Below, piece by piece: positions 1,291 to 52,015 of a stretch of 64,000 bases of DNA. Under the pieces are notes generated by a model. It had not been told where the DNA came from, searched no databases, and was given only the letters and a program-made list of their open reading frames with translations. Source of the DNA: Eubacteriales bacterium (GTDB taxonomy: Bacteria; Bacillota; Clostridia; Oscillospirales; CAG-272); contig JAZRIJ010000078.1 in the NCBI GenBank assembly GCA_045645205.1, positions 949 to 64,948 of the forward strand. The letters are read 5' to 3'. How positions within the stretch are numbered: position 1 is the first letter of the stretch; each line of letters opens with the position of its first letter. Position numbers and translations under genes: made by a program.

Positions 1291-3357
1291 TTATTCAGCG
1301 TCTGCTTCCTTCTGCTCGTCGGGTATGTAGTCTTCGGGCATTGCTTCTTCAGCTGCCTTAGCTTCTTCGATAAGCGCCCTGACAGAAAGGCTGATCTTGT
1401 GATTTTCCATATCAATGTCTGTGATCTTTGCATCGATCTGCTGACCGAGTTCAAGAACATCAGCAGGCTTGTTGATCTTTCTGTCTGCGATCTGTGAAAT
1501 ATGGATAAGACCGTCAACACCGGGAAGAACTTCTGCAAATGCGCCAAAAGGCATCATGTTTACAATCTTAACATTTGCAACATCACCTACTGCATACTTT
1601 TCAACAAAAGCATTCCAAGGATTGTTTTCTTCTGTCTTGTAGCCGAGAGAAATTCTCTTTGCTTCTGCATCAAAATCCTTAACATATACTGTAAGAGTTT
1701 CGCCGACAGATACGATCTCGGAGGGGTGCTTGAAGTGTGTCCAAGCAAGCTCTGTGCTGTGGATCATACCGTCAACGCCGCCAAGGTCAACGAATACGCC
1801 GTAGTTTGTGATAGACTTAACAACGCCTTCGTATTTCTTATCCTTTTCGATAGCTGCCCAGAATGCTTCTTCAGCAGCCTTCTTTTCTTCTCTTACAACA
1901 ACACGGATAGAAGCAACTGCTCTTCTTCTCTGCTCGTTGATGTCGATTATCTTTACTCTGCGCTCTGCGCCCTTAAGTACAGAAAGGTCTGCATCCTTTG
2001 AAAGTCCTGTGTGTGATGCGGGAACGAAAAGCTTCTGTCCCTCGGCATAAACAAGTACGCCGCCTCTTACGATATCGGTTACCTTACCCTCAAGGATCTT
2101 ACCCTCGTTGTAGCATTCAACGATATTCTTCCAGTTTGTGATAGCGTCAACTCTCTTCTTGGAAAGTGATGCAACACCGTCGATATCGCTTACTCTTGTA
2201 ACCATGACCTCAATTTCGTCGCCTACCTTAAACTCATCTTCAAGTTTAACTGCAGGATTCTCGGAAACCTCGCTGTAAGGAACGATGCCGGTAACCTTTG
2301 CGCCAAGGTCAACCTGAACCTCGTTAGAGTTTACCGCAAGTACGATACCCTTTACGATTTCACCTGTATTTAAAGTTTTGAAAGATTCCTCAAGCATTGC
2401 AGCAAAGCTGTTTTCATCGGTTGTTTCAAAAGACTCCTGAGTCAAGTCCTTTTCGATGTTCTGTGTAATTTCGCTCATTTTGTTTTTTACCTCCTCTATG
2501 ATACCGCCGGGTGTCGATGCACCGGCAGATATGCCAACTTTAGATATTTTTCCCAAAAGCTCTGTCCGAAGCTCCGAGGCGTTCTCAATCAAAACTGTGT
2601 TTGGCTGATACTTCTTCGCCGTTTCGTAAAGCTTGTTGGTATTGGAGCTGTTTCTGCCCCCTATGATAACCATAAAATCGACTTTTTGCGCCAACAAAGC
2701 GGTCTCTGTCTGTCGATTTTCGGTAACACTACATATTGTATCAAAAATATATGAATTTGTATATACTTTTTCAAGAATTTTTTGAGTTTTTTTCCATTCT
2801 GTTAGTTTTTGTGTTGTCTGGGACACTACGACGACGTTTTTTTGTGCATTTTTATGAATTTTCAGCTTCTCATCAAGCTCTTCGGCATCGGAAAACACCT
2901 CAACCTCCCCCAAAGCAAAGCTTACTATACCCTTTACCTCGGGATGATTAGGGTCGCCGAATACATAAAGCAGCGTATCCTCCTTTGCGTTGTCCTTTAC
3001 AATCTTATGTATTTTCTTAACGTAAGGACAAGCGCAGTCAAGCATATCGAAGTATTCGTTTTCTTTCGCAAACCTCTCTAACTTGTCATATATATGCTTG
3101 GTCACACCGTGCGCTCTGACCACAACCGTACACGGATTCTGTTCGCTGCATTCGTTAAACACACGGTCGATATCCGCTTCCTCTATTACCTCGACACCCT
3201 TTTTTGAAAGATCTTCTGAAATAGTGGGATTGTGTATCAAATGCCCCAAGGTATATATTTTCCCTGCGCTTTTCTTTTTTATAAGCTCGTATACGGAATT
3301 GACTGCCCTGTCAACTCCAAAGCAAAAGCCTGCGTTTTTGGCAATCTCTATTTTCAT
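1291..3357 (-). CDS. ispH: Bifunctional 4-hydroxy-3-methylbut-2-enyl diphosphate reductase (IspH/LytB) fused to ribosomal protein S1 repeats
   Basis: The N-terminal ~280 aa is LytB-like (MKIEIAKNAGFCFGVDRAV...). The C-terminal part carries four S1 RNA-binding repeats (G.V..V...G.FVDLGG type). This fusion is common in Clostridia. Confidence 0.9.
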   Translation of the reverse strand: MKIEIAKNAGFCFGVDRAVNSVYELIKKKSAGKIYTLGHLIHNPTISEDLSKKGVEVIEEADIDRVFNECSEQNPCTVVVRAHGVTKHIYDKLERFAKENEYFDMLDCACPYVKKIHKIVKDNAKEDTLLYVFGDPNHPEVKGIVSFALGEVEVFSDAEELDEKLKIHKNAQKNVVVVSQTTQKLTEWKKTQKILEKVYTNSYIFDTICSVTENRQTETALLAQKVDFMVIIGGRNSSNTNKLYETAKKYQPNTVLIENASELRTELLGKISKVGISAGASTPGGIIEEVKNKMSEITQNIEKDLTQESFETTDENSFAAMLEESFKTLNTGEIVKGIVLAVNSNEVQVDLGAKVTGIVPYSEVSENPAVKLEDEFKVGDEIEVMVTRVSDIDGVASLSKKRVDAITNWKNIVECYNEGKILEGKVTDIVRGGVLVYAEGQKLFVPASHTGLSKDADLSVLKGAERRVKIIDINEQRRRAVASIRVVVREEKKAAEEAFWAAIEKDKKYEGVVKSITNYGVFVDLGGVDGMIHSTELAWTHFKHPSEIVSVGETLTVYVKDFDAEAKRISLGYKTEENNPWNAFVEKYAVGDVANVKIVNMMPFGAFAEVLPGVDGLIHISQIADRKINKPADVLELGQQIDAKITDIDMENHKISLSVRALIEEAKAAEEAMPEDYIPDEQKEADAE

Positions 3358-40696: not shown

Positions 40697-40849
40697 GTGA
40701 AATCGTTCGCTTTCGCTCACGGTGAAATAATTTACTGCGTAAATTGTGAAATTTGATGCTAACGCATCAAGTGAAATGAAATAAATCCACTCACGCCCGC
40801 AGGCATTTCACATTGCGAAGCAATATTTCACGCACGAAGTGCATTTCAC
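40697..40849 (+). repeat. Heptamer/hairpin ladder: 4x GTGAAAT then 3x ATTTCAC, interleaved with mini-hairpins
   Basis: GTGAAAT at 40697, 40722, 40746 and 40771. ATTTCAC at 40805, 40825 and 40843. Several spacers are palindromes: aatttac/gtaaatt, ttgatgc/gcatcaa, attgc/gcaat, gcac/gtgc, aaatcc/ggattt. Confidence 0.85.
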
Positions 40850-40876
40850 AAATCCCGCCAAGGATTTATTTCGTTG

Positions 40877-40908: not shown

Positions 40909-41044
40909 TGGTGCGGGTGTTCATAACGGACTTGATTAAAAAGTATTGAATATCCGGCAGAAACACACATATTTTTTACTCACACATTTGTGTATTTCAA
41001 GGTTTCTTCGTAAAATAAAATTACAGAAACGAGGAAACAAGATT

Positions 41045-41344
41045 ATGTCAAAATTTATTGAAGAATTCTATTACGGTAACATTGATCCCCAAGCACGAAG
41101 CACTAAGCAGAACAAAACAGTTCAAAAGCAGATGGAAGTCCTAATGCTCAACGAGGAATTTCTAACTGAAGCACTCACGGGTGAAAACAAAAAGAAATTT
41201 CTTGATTTTGTCAATGCTTGGAGTATCGTCAACGGAGAATCGAATCTCGACAGTTTTATTATGGGATTTCGATTGGGAGCTAACTTTGCATACGATACTT
41301 TTGTATCAACTGAAGCACCGTTTAAGGATTTACTGAAGGAGTGA
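41045..41344 (+). CDS. Hypothetical small protein of mobile element
   Basis: Start moved to ATG 41045 (MSKFIEEFYYGNIDPQ...). This N-terminus recurs in Clostridial transposon-borne small genes, as far as I recall. Confidence 0.55.
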   Translation: MSKFIEEFYYGNIDPQARSTKQNKTVQKQMEVLMLNEEFLTEALTGENKKKFLDFVNAWSIVNGESNLDSFIMGFRLGANFAYDTFVSTEAPFKDLLKE

Positions 41345-45351: not shown

Positions 45352-46797
45352 ATGAGAGAGTACGAATATAAGGTTATATCAATCAACGAACTATATGTAA
45401 ATCCTGAAAACTATAGATATATAAACGATGCGGATGATGAAATAGATGCAATAATTTGTATGTTCAATGTTGTTACTGGCGCACCAACAAAAGAAATGTT
45501 AAACTTATCAAAGGATATTGTTGAAGATGGTTTAAACCCTTTTGAAATGCCTATCGTTTGCTTTGATGATGATTTAAAAAAATATGTTGTGTACGAAGGC
45601 AATAGGCGTGTCACCTGTATAAAATTGATGACACAATACAAGAATAACGACAGAATATTGGAAAAAGTGTCGTTTGTAAGCGAAATATATAAACTTGAAT
45701 GCAGCATCAATGAAATCCAATGTGTTGTTTATAATAAAGCTGATGATGCAAAACACTTTTTATATAAAATTCATCAAGATGTTAATGGTGGTATTGGGCG
45801 TAAACAATGGGATTACCAAGCAAAAATGAAAGCGGAGGCTGCTATAGGAAATAAAAGTAGAGCGTACTCTATAGTAGAGTTTTTGAAAGAAAATCCCAAG
45901 ACAGATACATCATTGGTAAAAGCGATGGATACAAATCGCTGGATATCAAAATTAGAAAGAGTAGTAGGCTTTGCCAAATTTAAAGAAGTATACAACATAA
46001 CGTTTGATTCTAGCAATTCCATAGTATATAAAGATACAGAAGAGCAAGTATTACTAATGCTATCAAAACTAGTATCTGATTTAATATGCAATTCTGCTAC
46101 CGACAATTTTAGATTCAAAAAAGATTTTGATAATTATGTAGGCAACCTTGCAGATGAATTTAAAACACAAGTTAAGGAAACACCTACCAATCAAGAACAA
46201 TCTGTCACATATGTATCTAAAAATAAGGAAAACGACAGAAAGGTATCTACACAAGATATTCAATCAGAAAATGATACCAATAACAGCAACAATGAATCTG
46301 TAGTTGATGAACTTCCGGCAACCGGCGAGCCTCGTCGCTTAACGAGAAAAACCTTAATTGAAAAAGCTGCTTTGCAACTTGGCAAAAAATATGCAGATGC
46401 TGACTATGAATGTTTGAATGAAAAAGGTAAGCAAATATTACTTGAATTAGAATCTCTAAACATTAAAGAATTTCCGTTTGCATCGGCTGCGTTATGCAGA
46501 GCTTTATTGGAATGTGTTTTGAAACTATGGATTGATGCTGAAGGCGGGGTTTCTTTCAATTCTAATACTTTGCCCAGTACATATAATGGATGTCTAAATG
46601 TTCTTAGAACAAAGAATATTATAGATAATAAAGAACATAGCGTATTGAAAGCACAAGTAAATAAAGAGGACTATATCACTTTGTTAAATACTTGGATTCA
46701 TTCAGATACAAGTGCTTGCGTTTCTGAAACCAATCTCGTTAGCGGATGGAAAAACACAAGACTGTTAATTGAGAAATATATAGATACCCATAAATAG
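45352..46797 (+). CDS. ParB/Srx N-terminal-domain protein with long unknown C-terminal region
   Basis: The N-terminus ...ISINELYVNPENYRY... and the VYEGNRRVTCIKL box (GxRR) indicate a ParB-like fold. The middle is a low-complexity Asn/Ser/Thr linker. The C-terminal ~150 aa is helical. Confidence 0.65.
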   Translation: MREYEYKVISINELYVNPENYRYINDADDEIDAIICMFNVVTGAPTKEMLNLSKDIVEDGLNPFEMPIVCFDDDLKKYVVYEGNRRVTCIKLMTQYKNNDRILEKVSFVSEIYKLECSINEIQCVVYNKADDAKHFLYKIHQDVNGGIGRKQWDYQAKMKAEAAIGNKSRAYSIVEFLKENPKTDTSLVKAMDTNRWISKLERVVGFAKFKEVYNITFDSSNSIVYKDTEEQVLLMLSKLVSDLICNSATDNFRFKKDFDNYVGNLADEFKTQVKETPTNQEQSVTYVSKNKENDRKVSTQDIQSENDTNNSNNESVVDELPATGEPRRLTRKTLIEKAALQLGKKYADADYECLNEKGKQILLELESLNIKEFPFASAALCRALLECVLKLWIDAEGGVSFNSNTLPSTYNGCLNVLRTKNIIDNKEHSVLKAQVNKEDYITLLNTWIHSDTSACVSETNLVSGWKNTRLLIEKYIDTHK

Positions 46798-46819: not shown

Positions 46820-48232
46820 ATGGATATTCTTTTAGTTGAAGCTGATTATAAAAATAAATATCCTCCTTTAGGGTTGATGAAAATTAGTGCTTATCACAAG
46901 AGCGTAGGAGATAATGTTATTTTCGTAAAAGGAAAAAATAAGGAACTTAAATCAAAAAAGTGGGATAGAATTTATATTACTACTTTATTTACATTTTATT
47001 GGAAAAAAACTATAGAAACGATCAAATATTATTACAAATCTGTTGAGCAACCCGGTAATATTTATGTTGGTGGTATTTTGGCTACATTATTAGAGCAAGA
47101 ACTTAGAAGTGAGCCTGAAATTAAAGGAATTACTATTATGTCTGGGTTATTAGATAAGTCTAATATGTTAGGCCACGAGCTTGTTCCTATAGATCGTATA
47201 ACACCAGATTATTCTATAATTAGCAAGGATAACAACCCTTATCTTGAATATGAATATGAAGTACAAAATGCCTATATTACATCAACAACAAAAGGCTGTA
47301 TAAGAAAATGTGCTTTTTGTGCTGTAAGTGTTTTAGAACCAAAATATTGTGAATATCTTGATATTAAAGGTCAAATTAAAGAAATTAATACTTTATATGG
47401 AGAAAAGCGTGATTTGATGCTAATGGATAATAATATACTGGCATCAAGCAGATTGACTGAAATAGTAGATGATTTAGTTTCTTTGGGTTTTGAAAGAAAC
47501 AATAAATCATACAGAAAAGTTCAAGGTAAACGAGTTGTTCATCAAAATAGAAGAGTTGATTTTAATCAAGGTATTGATGCAAGATTGTTAACAGAAGATA
47601 AGATGGCACAATTGGCAAGATTGGAGATTCATCCATTAAGAATCGCATTTGATCATGCTGATGAAGAAAATGTTAAGATATATGTAAGAGCACAAAAACT
47701 TGCTGCAAAATATAAAATAAAGACTCTTTCAAATTACATACTTTTTAATTTTAATGACACACCTAAAGAATTGTATGATAGACTTAAAATTAACATTGAA
47801 TTAAATGAAGAATTTAATTTGCAAGGTTTAGAAACGAGCATTTGGTCTTTTCCTATGAAATATATGCCTATCTCTGGGGAACATTGCAAAGATAGAAAAT
47901 ATGTGGGAAAACATTGGAATTCAAAAATGTTAAGAGGAGTTCAGTGTATATTAAATGCAACTCATGCTGTTGTAGGTCCCAAAAAGGATTATTTTGAACT
48001 TGCTTTCGGACGCAATTATGATGAATTTATAGAGTTGATTTATATGCCCGAGTTATATATAACAAAAAGAAAACAGAACTCTGCTCAAATTAATAAATGG
48101 AAAACCAATTTTAAAAAATTGTCGCAAACAGAAAGAGAAGAGTTTATATCTTTAATAAAAAACAATTCATTTCCTAAATTAGATATTAAAAATCCTATTA
48201 TACGAGACTTGTATGAATGCTATTATAAATAA
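46820..48232 (+). CDS. B12-binding-domain-type radical SAM protein
   Basis: The N-terminus YPPLGLMKISAYHKSVGDNVIFV is typical of the B12-binding-like domain of class B/related rSAMs. The CxxxCxxC cluster motif is GCIRKCAFCAV. Confidence 0.75.
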   Translation: MDILLVEADYKNKYPPLGLMKISAYHKSVGDNVIFVKGKNKELKSKKWDRIYITTLFTFYWKKTIETIKYYYKSVEQPGNIYVGGILATLLEQELRSEPEIKGITIMSGLLDKSNMLGHELVPIDRITPDYSIISKDNNPYLEYEYEVQNAYITSTTKGCIRKCAFCAVSVLEPKYCEYLDIKGQIKEINTLYGEKRDLMLMDNNILASSRLTEIVDDLVSLGFERNNKSYRKVQGKRVVHQNRRVDFNQGIDARLLTEDKMAQLARLEIHPLRIAFDHADEENVKIYVRAQKLAAKYKIKTLSNYILFNFNDTPKELYDRLKINIELNEEFNLQGLETSIWSFPMKYMPISGEHCKDRKYVGKHWNSKMLRGVQCILNATHAVVGPKKDYFELAFGRNYDEFIELIYMPELYITKRKQNSAQINKWKTNFKKLSQTEREEFISLIKNNSFPKLDIKNPIIRDLYECYYK

Positions 48233-48367
48233 GCTTAATCACGGGTGATCTATTCCCGAAAAAACAGGTTTAATAGGGAAGATTTATACTATTATATCAT
48301 CTGTTAATTTTTACGTTCTAATAAAGGATATTGTTAACTCGAAAATTGTTTTTATTTATAAAAACCA

Positions 48368-48397
48368 CTTGACAAACGAATGTTCTATCGTGTATAC
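48368..48397 (+). promoter_or_regulatory. Candidate sigma-A promoter driving non-coding transcript
   Basis: TTGACA, 18-nt spacer, TATACT. Confidence 0.5.
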
Positions 48398-48402
48398 TGA
48401 AA

Positions 48403-48665
48403 TACCCTCATAGAGGGAATACAACTGAATATGATGTCCTCGTAGAGGTATAGTTAGGTACAAGTCCGCTATACCGCCGGCGATCTCTTTTGAGAAAGCC
48501 GTGACTCGCCACCGTGAATTTTTTGTACTGTTTAAGGTGGAGTTGAGCCGACACAAACAGTATGGTCTTTTGAATTAATTCAAAGCCGTTATGTATGAGC
48601 ATCTGATTTGAAGCGAGAGCTAAACGCTCCCGTCGATGATTAGTGTTGATACATAACGGCTTTTT
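48403..48665 (+). ncRNA. Candidate structured ncRNA (~260 nt), class unknown
   Basis: No credible ORF. Successive hairpins: ccctc/gaggg, cctc/gagg, ggtatag/ctatacc, ggcga/tcgcc, ccacc/ggtgg, tttgaatt/aattcaaa. It closes with the 14-bp stem aagccgttatgtat/atacataacggctt plus a T-run. Confidence 0.4.
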
Positions 48666-49007
48666 GTCTTTTCTCGGACTACTTAGCCGAAATATGAATG
48701 TGACATATAACCTCAGTTGCACTTTGAAAATTGAATACCCGTTACCGAATGTAGATACTACGCTAAGACCTCATAAAGAGCGAGCGAAAACGATGTGTAG
48801 CAAGATGCTATGGGTTAGGAATTAACGGACATTCGGGAGAACGGCAAAGCGCCTAATAGGAGTAATTAACCTCGAACAGGCTCGGAGTAATTGCATCATC
48901 TTAGCGAGCAGACTGTTTGTACTCCTATCGGCGCAAAACAGTACTCGTTAGGGATATCCCTAAAACCCAATTCTACGAAATCAAACAAAGAAAGGAGATC
49001 AAAATCT

Positions 49008-49903
49008 ATGACACAGTATGAAATCCCAAACGAAAGCAAAAAGAAAAAATCCGCCCGTATCCCCATAGATAAGCTACACGATTTTGACGGTCATCCGTAC
49101 AAGGTCACAGACAATGAGGATATGGACAAGCTTGTAGAAAGTATTAAGTCGCAAGGCATTATCTCGCCCTTAATAGTAAGGCAGAAAGATAACACAACCG
49201 ATGAATACGAAGTAATAGCGGGACACCGAAGATTGCACGCAAGTAAAAGGGTGGGACTGATGGTTGTACCCGCCTTAATTTATCCCTATACCAAACCCGA
49301 AGCGGCGATTGCCGTTGTGGACAGCAACCTACACAGAGAACGGATATTGCCGAGCGAAAAAGCCTTTGCTTACAAAATGAAAATGGAGGCTTTGAAAGAG
49401 CAAGGCAAACGAACCGATTTAACCTCGTCGCAAGTTGCGACAAAGTCGGATACCGCTACTGAGATCGGCAAGGCAGCAAACGAAAGCCGTGACCAAGTGT
49501 TTCGGTATATCCGTTTAACCAATCTTATCCCCGAACTGTTACAGCTTGTGGATGAAGAACGAATCGCACTTACTCCTGCTGTGGAACTGTCCTATCTTGT
49601 CGAGCAGGAGCAGTACGATTTAATGAGTACATTGATAGTGAGGACTGCACTCCGTCACTCTCACAGGCAGTACGGCTAAAGAAATTATCCCAAGCAGGTC
49701 AGCTTAATGCGGATAAGATCTTCGCCGTTATGAGCGAAGAAAAGGTAAATCAAAAGGAACGCATCAGTTTTCCTTTTGAAGATGTCCGCCGTTTCTTCCC
49801 TAAAAGTTATACCCAAAAAGATGTATATAATGCAATCCTAAAGCTCATTGGCGAAGATTATAAACGCCGTGAGCGAGCAAGAAAAAATCGTGATGAAAGG
49901 TAA
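49008..49903 (+). pseudogene. parB-like (Spo0J-type N-terminal domain) gene with frameshift near 49629
   Basis: AAAGGAGA RBS and the IAGHRRLHAS ParB box. After ..QYDLMS the frame shifts by one nt. The continuation IDSEDCTPSLSQAVRLKKLSQAGQLNADKIF...RARKNRDER* is readable in the next frame. The length of 896 nt is not a multiple of 3. Confidence 0.7.
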
Positions 49904-49912
49904 TGAAGTATT

Positions 49913-50140
49913 ATGAAATTTATATGTGGTCTTGCACAACAAGAAAATGAGTATGTGATAAACGGAGTCAAGTATATCGTCGGTTCGTCATTTATGACTT
50001 CTAAAGTTAAAAATCATCCGACAATTACCGACCGTTTCAAAAGAATTGTAACAAGTGATTTCGTACCTTTGACGGATGAATCACCACCGAGTAAAATGGC
50101 AGTAGAATATGTGTGTTCGACTGCCGGGAAGGAGGACTAA
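49913..50140 (+). CDS. TnpW-like small transposon protein
   Basis: 75 aa with the ..INGVKYIVGSSF...DRFKRIVTSDF.. pattern I associate with TnpW-type genes. These lie next to large serine recombinases. Confidence 0.45.
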   Translation: MKFICGLAQQENEYVINGVKYIVGSSFMTSKVKNHPTITDRFKRIVTSDFVPLTDESPPSKMAVEYVCSTAGKED

Positions 50141-51835
50141 ATGCAGTCGAAGAAAAAAGACAACGTCGGCATAACTGCTTTATACTGCCGACTATCACGT
50201 GATGACGGAACGGATAACGATAGCAACTCTATCGTGAATCAAAAGAAGCTGTTGCAGAAATACGCAAAGGAACACGGCTTTTCTAACACCCGCAGTTATG
50301 TGGATGACGGCTATACGGGAACAAACTTTAACCGCCCCGGCTTTCAAAAATTGCTTGAGGATATTGAGATGGGATACGTAAGTGTGATTATCGTAAAGGA
50401 TATGTCCCGACTCGGCAGAGATTATCTGCAAGTAGGATATTACACCGACACCTACTTTCCCGATAGAAATATTCGCTTCATAGCAGTAAATGACTGTGTA
50501 GACAGTGCAGACGGTGAAAACGAACTTGCACCTTTTCGTAACGTTATGAATGAAATGTACGCAAGAGATATTAGCCGTAAGGTCAGAAGCTCCCACAGAC
50601 TTCGTGGTAACGCAGGAGAGCCGTTATCTCAGCCGCCGTATGGGTATCTGAAATCGCCCGAAAACAAAAAGAAATGGGTTATAGATCCCGAAGCCGCACA
50701 AGTGGTGCAAGATATATTCCGTATGTGCTTGGAGGGCAAAGGCAACGAAACCATTGCCCGAATCCTTCAAGAACGAAAGGTGTTAATCCCGATGGCATAT
50801 TGGAGAGAAAAAGGTCTTGGCAGAGGCGGAAAGAAAGCACAACCCAATCCTTATAAATGGTGCAAATCCACCATAGCCAAGATACTTGCTCAACAGAAAT
50901 ACTGCGGTGATGTAATCAACTTTAAGACCTATTCAAAGTCGTTCAAGAACAAAGCCCGTATCCCTAATCCTGAAGAAAATTGGGCGGTGTTCAAGAATGT
51001 GCACGATCCAATAATTGACCGTGAAACCTTTGAATCGGTGCAGAAGCTCACCAAGAAAACCAAACGTCGAGCACCGAAAGCAGACAATGCCGAAAAGAAT
51101 ATGTTTTGCGATTTGCTTTACTGTGCTGATTGCGGTAGCAAGTTATGGTCGCACGTAAACACCATAAACAAGGATATTCAATATTTCAGTTGCTCCAATT
51201 ACAAGGTGGATACAAGAGGAACTTGCGAAACACGGCACTATATCCGTGCTGATGCCATAGAGCAAGTGGTAATGCTTGAACTAAAGCGAATGGCAAAGTT
51301 CTTACAGAGCGACGAGGAAGCCTTTGCAGACCTACTTGCTCAAAAGACACAAAAGGATATTATCAATGAGCAAAAAGCCTTGCAGGGCGAACTGCAACGG
51401 TGTACGGCACGAAACCAAAAGGTTGCTGAGCTTTACGAAAAGCTTTACGAGGACAATGTTTCGGGCAAGGTAACGGATGAGTGGTTTATGCAGTTATCCC
51501 ACAAATACGAAGTAGAGCGTATGGAGCTGAAAACCAAGATTGCATCCCTAAACGAAAGGATAAACAATCTTGGTACAATGCAACAGAACAAAGACAGATT
51601 TATCAACGCTATCCGAAGATTTATGGAAATGCAAAAACTGACTGCACCACTTCTTCGTGAACTCATAGACGAGATAACGGTTTATGAAACCGAAGGTGTT
51701 GGTAAGAATCGCAGTCAGAGGATTATGATCCATTACAAATTCATTGGGTATATTGAGATACCCGAATGCGGAAGTAATTACAAGGCAGATACACGAAAAG
51801 GTGTAGCTGTCGAGTATATTACCAAATCCGCATAA
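50141..51835 (+). CDS. Large serine recombinase (TnpX/TndX-like)
   Basis: N-terminal resolvase domain with catalytic-Ser context ALYCRLSRDD, then a recombinase domain, a zinc ribbon (CDLLYCADCGSKL...C) and a coiled coil. 564 aa. Confidence 0.9.
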   Translation: MQSKKKDNVGITALYCRLSRDDGTDNDSNSIVNQKKLLQKYAKEHGFSNTRSYVDDGYTGTNFNRPGFQKLLEDIEMGYVSVIIVKDMSRLGRDYLQVGYYTDTYFPDRNIRFIAVNDCVDSADGENELAPFRNVMNEMYARDISRKVRSSHRLRGNAGEPLSQPPYGYLKSPENKKKWVIDPEAAQVVQDIFRMCLEGKGNETIARILQERKVLIPMAYWREKGLGRGGKKAQPNPYKWCKSTIAKILAQQKYCGDVINFKTYSKSFKNKARIPNPEENWAVFKNVHDPIIDRETFESVQKLTKKTKRRAPKADNAEKNMFCDLLYCADCGSKLWSHVNTINKDIQYFSCSNYKVDTRGTCETRHYIRADAIEQVVMLELKRMAKFLQSDEEAFADLLAQKTQKDIINEQKALQGELQRCTARNQKVAELYEKLYEDNVSGKVTDEWFMQLSHKYEVERMELKTKIASLNERINNLGTMQQNKDRFINAIRRFMEMQKLTAPLLRELIDEITVYETEGVGKNRSQRIMIHYKFIGYIEIPECGSNYKADTRKGVAVEYITKSA

Positions 51836-51938: not shown

Positions 51939-52015
51939 TGGTCGGAGTGACTGGATTCGAACCAGCGGCCTCATGGACCCGAACCATGCGCACTACCAAA
52001 CTGTGCCACACCCCG
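51939..52015 (-). tRNA. tRNA-Pro (anticodon CGG)
   Basis: The minus strand reads cggggtgtggcacagtttggtagtgcgcatggttCGGgtccatgaggccgctggttcgaatccagtcactccgacca. The cloverleaf folds by hand (acceptor 7 bp, T-loop TTCGAAT) and CCA is encoded. Confidence 0.9.

Follow-up and report, generated by a model that had tools for sequence, protein, structure and literature searches.

A two-domain structured RNA, probably a leader, and an oriT-like site ahead of the core genes of an integrative mobilizable element from gut Clostridia

This work concerns a noncoding block in a small integrative mobilizable element of gut Clostridia, carried by a 64,000-nucleotide stretch of DNA (the window; contig JAZRIJ010000078.1 from an Eubacteriales bacterium) in which the interval 48233-49007 separates the stop of a radical-SAM gene (46820-48232) from the ATG of a parB-like gene (49008). 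Two consecutive domains of this block, Parts A and B, are well supported by comparison of related loci as real, structured RNA of the + strand. With moderate confidence, we interpret 48369-48853 as a promoter followed by a structured 5' leader RNA of ~450 nt, which probably acts as an attenuator or as a protein-binding regulator and which is followed by a site resembling an origin of transfer (oriT), Part C. The leader would head the core operon of the element and would constitute an uncatalogued two-domain RNA of new architecture. A first-pass annotation of the same DNA, made by reading the sequence without database searches, had described the interval as a candidate large noncoding RNA (ncRNA) within a mobile element, structured and equipped with a promoter and a terminator of its own. 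The structured RNA is borne out by compensatory changes, a pseudoknot, a kink-turn (K-turn) and a wobble bias, although it is better regarded as a leader to the downstream operon than as a free-standing gene.

The features of the interval and of the genes that follow it are listed below, with paired strands joined by "with".

48233-48359, no strand assigned: cargo junction, from the end of the radical-SAM gene to the onset of conserved sequence; outside the conserved element
48369-48398, + strand: sigma-70-type promoter, TTGACA-18-TATACT, matching at 11/12 positions and kept in all 20 homologues
48399-48670, + strand: Part A, structured RNA domain of ~270 nt ending in a predicted intrinsic terminator (covariance model R1)
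48405-48417, + strand: P1 hairpin, CCCTC-ATA-GAGGG, which covaries (CCCUC/GAGGG, UCUC/GAGA, UGACAGU/ACUGUCA, CCUCU/AGAGG)
48421-48430, + strand: single-stranded motif ACAACTGAAT, nearly invariant in two alignments and unpaired in the supported structure
48447-48453 with 48469-48475, + strand: P3 hairpin of the minimum-free-energy (MFE) fold; the relatives' hairpin at the same place covaries
48478-48481 with 48498-48501, inner stem 48484-48487 with 48492-48495, + strand: P4 hairpin of the MFE fold, covarying in relatives
48505-48513 with 48536-48547, + strand: P5 hairpin, supported helices 4-6 of the Part A alignment
48525-48532 (P5 loop) with 48556-48563 (3' strand), + strand: H-type pseudoknot, a covarying helix outside the model
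48567-48585, + strand: invariant palindrome CTTTTGAA-TTAA-TTCAAAG, its 3' half running into the base of the terminator stem
48582-48668, + strand: long imperfect predicted terminator hairpin (stem 48582-48606 with 48640-48663), apical hairpin and U-run
48671-48714, + strand: linker with two small local hairpins, lineage-specific and not alignable between clades
48715-48853, + strand: Part B, closed three-way-junction RNA domain (covariance model R2)
48739-48742 with 48841-48844, 48745-48751 with 48830-48836, and hairpin 48793-48815, + strand: Part B stems, supported by covariation
48761-48786, + strand: K-turn of Part B, with C-stem CGC/GCG, 3-nt bulge TAA, tandem G.A/A.G and a non-canonical stem with variable hairpin
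48854-48985, no strand assigned: Part C, the last ~130 nt, with inverted repeats and conserved flanks; oriT-like DNA site
48856-48864 with 48920-48928, 48912-48918 with 48936-48942, and TTAGGGATATCCCTAA at 48948-48963: Part C repeats
48901-48911: conserved string TTAGCGAGCAG of Part C
48991-49010, + strand: ribosome-binding site (RBS) AAAGGAG and ATG (49008) of the parB-like gene, read from the sequence
49008-51835, + strand: downstream operon of parB-like gene, 75-aa open reading frame (ORF) and large serine recombinase gene, assigned with Pfam

Two RNA domains in the noncoding block

Relatives were gathered as 80 ParB-anchored loci from species-representative genomes, to which 15 loci were added by exact-protein look-ups; loci are cited by number where they must be told apart. 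Similarity to these loci starts at query base 128, corresponding to window 48360, just 5' of the promoter. Sequence upstream of 48360 varies from locus to locus, so that 48360-49007 is the conserved part of the interval first delimited and its initial 127 nt, not common to the relatives, belong to the cargo junction. Over 48360-49007, four loci (L001-L004) are 94-97% identical to the window and two others ~84% identical (L006 and L089, each with a pair of small genes inserted past ~48750). A diverged clade (L007, L008, L009, L012, L013, L098, L092-94, L097, L086, L095-96) is homologous over the full length at ~60% identity.

Inside the interval the longest minus-strand ORFs have 104 and 65 aa, and the longest on the plus strand has 60 aa. 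At the protein level they match near-identical loci only, with nothing in the diverged relatives, which argues that no conserved protein is encoded here; a conserved small protein was rejected on this ground, and the earlier statement that the interval holds no credible ORF stands, 48360-49007 being free of conserved ORFs. In L089 a 185-aa gene has been called straight across Parts A and B (1901-2458, minus strand); as the window and L006 carry stops in that frame, the call is probably spurious.

The promoter had been proposed one base away, at 48368-48397, and is otherwise as first described. A TTGACA box and a TATAAT-like box are present in 20/20 homologous loci, the L013 copy scores 12/12, and the window copy is the top-scoring + strand promoter match within 40.5-52.5 kb. 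Its spacer contains a conserved, partly palindromic AAC..TGTTC stretch, a possible repressor operator that would overlap the promoter. This stretch (window 48375-48392, L007 1629-1645, L086 182-199) reads AACATATGTT, GAACATTCGTTC and, in the window, AACGAATGTT.

Part A was modelled with R1, a covariance model built from eight sequences of the diverged clade only, with the structure checked by hand. Cross-clade alignment with MAFFT and RNAalifold was dropped owing to a poor consensus with helices out of register. R1 matches the window over the full length of 48399-48670 at 55 bits (E = 4e-12, E-values being rough due to a short calibration), though the window's own clade was left out of the model. 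It also matches 19 further distinct sequences, on the + strand only, and nothing in the remaining ~70 loci. Across these 20 distinct sequences 94.2% of cells pair (a percentage inflated by fitting to the model), compared to 38-48% when partners are slid, and double-sided changes are found in 38/60 pairs. Covariation reaches 0.468 compared to 0.226 in shuffled alignments, with 0/500 shuffles attaining the observed score. Moreover, window 48400-48680 folds at -95.6 kcal/mol, with z = -5.5 against shuffles (reverse strand, -82.2 kcal/mol, z = -4.5). The chain of hairpins that had been noticed downstream of the promoter is thus confirmed both by folding energy and by covariation.

The pseudoknot helix provides a test that is free of model fitting, as the alignment was not fitted to it: 91.7% of its cells pair, compared to 30-58% for slid partners, with double changes in 4/8 pairs, and in L097 the helix is present in a shifted version, GUUUCG/CGAAAC. 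A competing pairing from the MFE fold, ACAACUG (5') with CAGU, was rejected, since in L097 and L092 CAGU co-varies with the P5-loop strand while ACAACUG is constant; in these two loci the ACAACTGAAT motif likewise stays fixed where its potential CAGU partner changes. A degenerate second copy of this motif lies at 48727-48736, just 5' of Part B. Part A is a mosaic in L086, L095 and L096, where the 5' domain is clade-2-like and the terminator hairpin clade-1-like.

The terminator helix is the best supported of Part A, with 98% of cells pairing and compensatory changes in 13/23 pairs. In its closing stem the first 15 pairs are perfect and TTTTTGTCTTTT follows directly; a U-run follows the hairpin in 20/20 sequences. 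A stable stem-loop and then a U-run on the transcribed strand make this a predicted intrinsic terminator, and the predicted transcript from promoter to U-run is ~265 nt, in agreement with the closing stem, T-run and ~260-nt transcript proposed initially. The hairpin in the window is missed by a simple terminator scanner because of its loop-size limit, and in L013 all that it reports ahead of the same U-run is a short hairpin local to the 3' arm. No second terminator-like site comes after the Part A hairpin. Between Parts A and B, an A/T-rich insert of 150-280 nt was observed in L086 (465-720), L096 (439-715) and L092 (1413-1555), carrying direct repeats ..GAGAAATTTTC.. / ..CTACTCATTGAGGG...

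Part B is described by R2, built from 13 sequences, which matches the window at 36.9 bits (E = 5e-6) and 22 distinct sequences in total. In these, 94.0% of cells pair compared to 30-47% when slid, double changes occur in 17/26 pairs, and covariation is 0.352 compared to 0.178 after shuffling, again with 0/500 shuffles reaching the score. The fold consists of two stacked closing stems, a K-turn arm and a second hairpin, joined by highly conserved junction strands (GGAUAUGA, CAACGCC and GGGGCAGGAAC). The distal 340 nt of the interval, taken as a whole, fold weakly better than shuffles (z = -2.05), yet they contain this covarying domain. Covariation in homologues, proposed as a check at the outset, was found for Parts A and B, far above the slid and shuffled controls.

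Judged from the sequence, the K-turn arm has the elements that define this motif: closure by C=G, a 3-nt bulge, tandem sheared G.A/A.G pairs (formed by the GA at 48767-48768 and the GA at 48782-48783) and a non-canonical stem. The corresponding columns are C in 22/22, G in 20/22 and A in 22/22 on one strand, and G in 21/22, A in 22/22 and G in 22/22 on the other; covariation extends to the C-stem, and a K-loop takes the place of the distal stem in three loci. Two other readings of Part B were discarded. Its GAUGA...GAAA as a hammerhead-like element was rejected by eye, with a misfit in the core and no Rfam family, ribozymes included, at this place; pairing of the second ACAACUGAAU copy with the closing strand of Part B was rejected as well, since that copy is constant in L080 though the helix changes.

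That these signals reflect RNA is indicated by the excess of G.U over A.C in the supported helices (121:29 in Part A, 43:9 in Part B) and by the better folding of the + strand in 18/20 Part A and 14/22 Part B sequences. The wobble bias, together with the conserved promoter, U-run, pseudoknot and K-turn, argues for a + strand RNA and not a DNA structure.

The leader reading and its rivals

In the mechanism that we propose, the conserved promoter would start transcription near 48405 (predicted), the transcript would fold as Part A, with P1, P3, P4, P5 and the pseudoknot followed by the long intrinsic terminator, and the transcripts that read through would then fold Part B. The Part A terminator would act as an attenuator of parB and, in relatives, also of nikA and the relaxase gene: there is no other good promoter between terminator and parB, so that parB expression must pass the terminator, as must that of nikA and the relaxase in relatives. 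Read-through would probably be controlled by a signal, which could be a protein or the invariant palindrome at the stem base, and Part B may be a platform that binds a protein or ligand and tunes the downstream message. The promoter at 48369-48398 is the only strong + strand promoter in the island, supporting a leader role, and the block always stands at the head of a co-directional gene array in the same orientation. In L080, promoter and P1 lead straight into Part B with no terminator module, an arrangement which indicates that the promoter serves the operon and that Part A is a module added to it. In further lineages, 45-190 nt separate Part B from the first gene, which encodes one of two small function-unassigned proteins or a 294-344-aa P-loop protein.

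The palindrome at 48567-48585 can pair in 87.7% of cells and is without covariation because its sequence does not vary; it is a possible antiterminator or protein site. An antiterminator formed by the P3 5' arm and the terminator 5' arm was rejected by eye, as P3 covaries and the terminator arm does not.

Several points weigh against the leader interpretation. No conserved, covarying antiterminator was found, and the palindrome speaks neither for nor against a switch. Both transcript ends are predicted, and in the window no obvious expression platform accompanies Part B, the RBS lying ~140 nt further on. The ~20 sequences represent about five lineages and are related, not independent; with the exception of the pseudoknot test, alignments had been fitted to the models, which inflates the pairing percentages. 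Part A is present in only 10/80 ParB-anchored loci. L005 (CALFTO010000114.1), with a ParB 92% identical, is without Parts A and B and appears to be without Part C: in the upstream 1.6 kb (L005 1-1662) both covariance models are without a match, and the search with the Part C profile listed none there. The RNA is therefore not obligatory for the gene set. Finally, the window copy looks partly decayed, with nikA and relaxase absent and parB frameshifted.

The terminator could also simply close a stand-alone RNA. Part A would then be a trans-acting small RNA (sRNA) of ~265 nt with targets elsewhere in the element or the host, and Part B a separate element of the 5' untranslated region, an explanation that we regard as unlikely. 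It would account for Part A being a complete promoter-to-terminator unit and for the independent occurrence of the two parts (Part B is found without Part A in L080, L073, L070, L053 and L075), and the single-stranded motif ACAACUGAAU and the P4 loop could pair with targets. However, if nothing read through, the downstream genes would have no good promoter to rely on, L080 places Part B directly behind the same promoter, the orientation of Part A is constant and always immediately 5' of the operon, and no target was identified. A related suggestion of the first-pass annotation, an antitoxin-like RNA for the adjacent operon, received no support from any of the data.

Also unlikely is a bolder version of the regulatory interpretation, in which Parts A and B would represent a new class of sensory ribo-regulators specific to mobile elements, the K-turn junction binding a ligand or protein or cleaving itself and the terminator domain deciding on excision and transfer. 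If true, this would amount to an RNA-level checkpoint on horizontal gene transfer in gut Clostridia. A narrower proposal, to which we assign a low probability, is that either Part B or the pseudoknotted core of Part A is a riboswitch aptamer or self-cleaving ribozyme coupling a metabolite or signal to transfer and excision. The covarying stems around highly conserved junction strands are consistent with it, as are the K-turn, a motif present in several riboswitch classes, and the terminator directly after the pseudoknotted core. On the other hand, no known family in Rfam 15 was matched, no covarying alternative pairing connects core and terminator, no expression platform adjoins Part B, and the context of mobilization and recombination genes suggests no ligand.

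Standing as it does ahead of a transfer-related operon, the structured RNA could also be a processive antitermination element comparable to put, EAR or conAn2, which would let polymerase pass the terminators of the operon; conAn offers a precedent in Gram-positive conjugative elements (PMC8191782). We consider this highly improbable. The downstream 3 kb (49.0-52.0 kb) contains no + strand terminator-like sites that would have to be bypassed, the operon is short, the arrangement differs from that of conAn, where the RNA comes after the conAn1 gene, and the RNA itself carries a strong predicted terminator.

An oriT-like site at the distal end

Part C is the most widely kept block, with 47 nhmmer matches, and is always located just 5' of nikA-like and relaxase genes or of parB. 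Across 31 distinct sequences it has three inverted repeats, fixed in position and variable in sequence, flanked by ..RGCAAGCAGG before repeat 1 and by CTTTAGGG-loop-CCCTAA.A.CC at repeat 3; its 3' limit is the RBS of nikA (of parB in the window). Its pairs are nearly all Watson-Crick (783), the wobbles lean to the minus strand (61 vs 32), and the minus strand folds better in 25/31 sequences.

The first-pass annotation had pointed to a long-range complementarity and a duplicated motif in the distal 340 nt. Both are present: ATAGGAGTA (48856-48864) and TACTCCTAT (48920-48928) are complementary, and GGAGTAATT is duplicated at 48859-48867 and 48885-48893. The 9-nt complementarity and the duplication are, however, confined to the lineage of the window, other lineages having different inverted repeats there. 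The alternative put forward in that annotation, an oriT-type DNA site, probably applies to Part C only, as Parts A and B behave as RNA.

Extending such a reading to the whole region, as an oriT with accessory sites or as a single-strand origin or promoter folding in the transferred strand, seems to us very improbable. The position is exactly that expected for the oriT of a nikA/relaxase module, Part C does behave like DNA inverted repeats, and hairpins of oriT and single-strand origins can covary too. Nevertheless this explanation would be valid for Part C alone: Parts A and B have a conserved double-strand promoter in front, contain a pseudoknot, a terminator with U-run and an RNA motif, the K-turn, and show a 4-5:1 excess of G.U over A.C on the + strand, opposite to Part C.

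In an oriT of the RP4/R64 type (MOBP), an inverted repeat adjoins the nick core 5'-YATCCTGY-3' (PMC3772185). Part C resembles this arrangement in that its inverted repeats lie, in relatives, directly 5' of genes for a nikA-like accessory protein and a MobA/VirD2-type relaxase, and differs from it in that the nick core is loosely matched, on either strand, and that the window copy is without relaxase. Partial matches to the nick core are TTCCCTGCTTG on the minus strand, beside repeat 1, and on the plus strand ACATCCTA in L097, AACCCTGC in L096 and just AAACCCAA in the window. The two candidate nick regions are thus ~48901-48915 on the minus strand, next to repeat 1, and a plus-strand one past the repeat at 48948-48963. 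By position and anatomy, Part C is a probable origin of transfer of the MOBP kind. As such it might let a relaxase-less copy be mobilized in trans; with nikA and the relaxase gene missing in the window and L001-L004, mobilization would be possible in trans only. Setting the RNA part apart from the probable oriT matters for predicting which relaxase-less islands remain mobilizable.

Some sequence is shared between Parts A and C. The pseudoknot helix ACUGUUU/AAACAGU (48525-48563) recurs as an inverted repeat of Part C (48912-48942), and in the diverged clade (L013, L007) the 9-mer GACAGUUUC is common to the pseudoknot 3' strand and repeat 1. L097 is without this sharing, and either coincidence or duplication may hold.

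The element and its relation to known systems

In intact relatives, the noncoding block is followed by genes for a NikA-like protein (PF21983), a MobA/VirD2-type relaxase (PF03432), ParB, a TnpW-like protein and a serine recombinase. The window and L001-L004 are without nikA and relaxase (compare L007 2205-3959), and the noncoding block abuts parB (48985-49008). The parB-like product has a ParB_N domain (E = 1.7e-18); homologous ParB proteins are 295-302 aa long, and the window copy stops at 223 aa with a 57-aa C-terminal piece reappearing in another frame at 49730-49903, which indicates a frameshift and explains why the exact ParB of the window is not on record. L001 carries an intact parB. 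The serine recombinase gene (50141-51835) encodes Resolvase, Recombinase, Zn-ribbon and DUF4368 domains (Pfam); this large recombinase at the presumed end of the element, preceded by a TnpW-like small gene (a weak TnpW match, in L097), gives a Tn4451-like context. A second promoter-like site, TTGACG-17-TAAAAT (10/12; 50069-50097, + strand), lies just 5' of the recombinase gene, which from this sequence may have its own, weaker promoter. A tRNA gene (51942-52015, minus strand) is located just past the recombinase gene.

The cargo upstream comprises a D12 methylase, a DpnII endonuclease, a second methylase, a 481-aa protein and the radical-SAM protein. The gene for the 481-aa protein (45352-46797, + strand), between methylase and radical-SAM genes, has no Pfam match, and its product may form a defence cargo with the DpnII system and the radical-SAM protein. 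Further away, ~7.5 kb upstream, a full-length Gut-1 RNA (RF01706; 40800-40876, minus strand; 76 bits compared to a threshold of 50) adjoins a DUF6809 gene (40946-41344).

The block is carried by uncultured gut Clostridia, Oscillospiraceae, Acutalibacteraceae and Lachnospiraceae, with human, mouse, rabbit and ruminant hosts, and by one isolate, Acutalibacter sp. 1XD8-33 (L012, contig NZ_RAZF01000023.1). All loci are from Clostridia except L073 (CAVHCH010000154.1), which has Part B and the ParB family and is labelled Bacteroidaceae, suggesting mis-binning or cross-phylum transfer. BLASTN with the 775 nt gave no match in plasmid or phage collections, two pattern scans of viral contigs gave 0 matches, and a promoter-pattern scan of metagenome contigs gave 5 chance matches, unrelated to the element.

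Integrative mobilizable elements with serine recombinases are frequent in gut Firmicutes, and tetracycline resistance genes are found on related ones (PMC12904643). A conserved leader of ~450 nt with >55 covarying pairs, a pseudoknot, a K-turn and a terminator is a candidate control point before relaxase, parB and recombinase, and models R1 and R2 can be used for annotating such elements in gut metagenomes. IME_Rho_tet and related elements of gut Firmicutes have been described in the same work, the main text of which does not use the terms RNA, non-coding or oriT. IME_Rho_tet resembles the element family studied here in its small size and in the common direction of all genes, which comprise cargo, a mobC-type accessory factor, a relaxase and a serine recombinase (PMC12904643).

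Searched against Rfam 15 at gathering thresholds, the whole window yielded only Gut-1 (40800-40876) and tRNA. With E up to 10, the region 48100-49150 gave only chance-level matches (the best, mir-586, at 26 bits compared to a threshold of 89), and four diverged homologous loci gave nothing in the region with E up to 0.5. The resemblance first seen to large ncRNA classes, including ROOL, GOLLD, HEARO and raiA, hence found no Rfam 15 match in the window or in these four homologues. The RNA shares with those classes a sizeable, ornate structure in Firmicutes mobile DNA near a tRNA gene, but it is shorter, is composed of two modules and is tied to one position in one element family.

The T-box stem I and the SAM-I and c-di-GMP-II riboswitches are K-turn-containing cis-regulatory leaders. 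Part B is similar to them in its multi-helix junction, covarying stems, conserved junction nucleotides, K-turn arm and location in a 5' leader; in contrast to them, it has no Rfam match, no T-box or known ligand-binding core, and no expression platform adjoining it.

Attenuation of transfer operons provides the closest functional parallels to the leader that we propose. In the prgQ leader of pCF10, as summarised in PMC13401043, a counter-transcript induces termination in an attenuator before the conjugation genes. Both systems would have a promoter-proximal leader terminator gating a transfer operon, whereas here 48.2-49.0 kb has no strong minus-strand promoter, no convergent promoter or antisense transcript is evident, and sequence and structure are unrelated. 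The conjugation operon of pLS20 has a zipper-type transcriptional attenuator, cATT, in a 456-nt leader, the terminator being a separate downstream hairpin that pairs with an upstream stem-loop and extends a long stem (PMC13401043). The block described here differs from cATT in carrying the U-run on the long hairpin itself, with no complementary third segment or covarying extension found, and shows no sequence similarity to it, having instead a pseudoknotted 5' domain and a second domain with a K-turn. It shares with cATT a long structured leader from the main promoter to the first transfer gene of a Gram-positive mobile element, an intrinsic terminator (predicted here), and a long imperfect stem-loop preceded by a weak one (here the palindrome hairpin 48567-48585). 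The leader would thus extend the long-leader attenuation of conjugation operons seen in Bacillus plasmids (PMC13401043) to another taxon, another type of element and another architecture.

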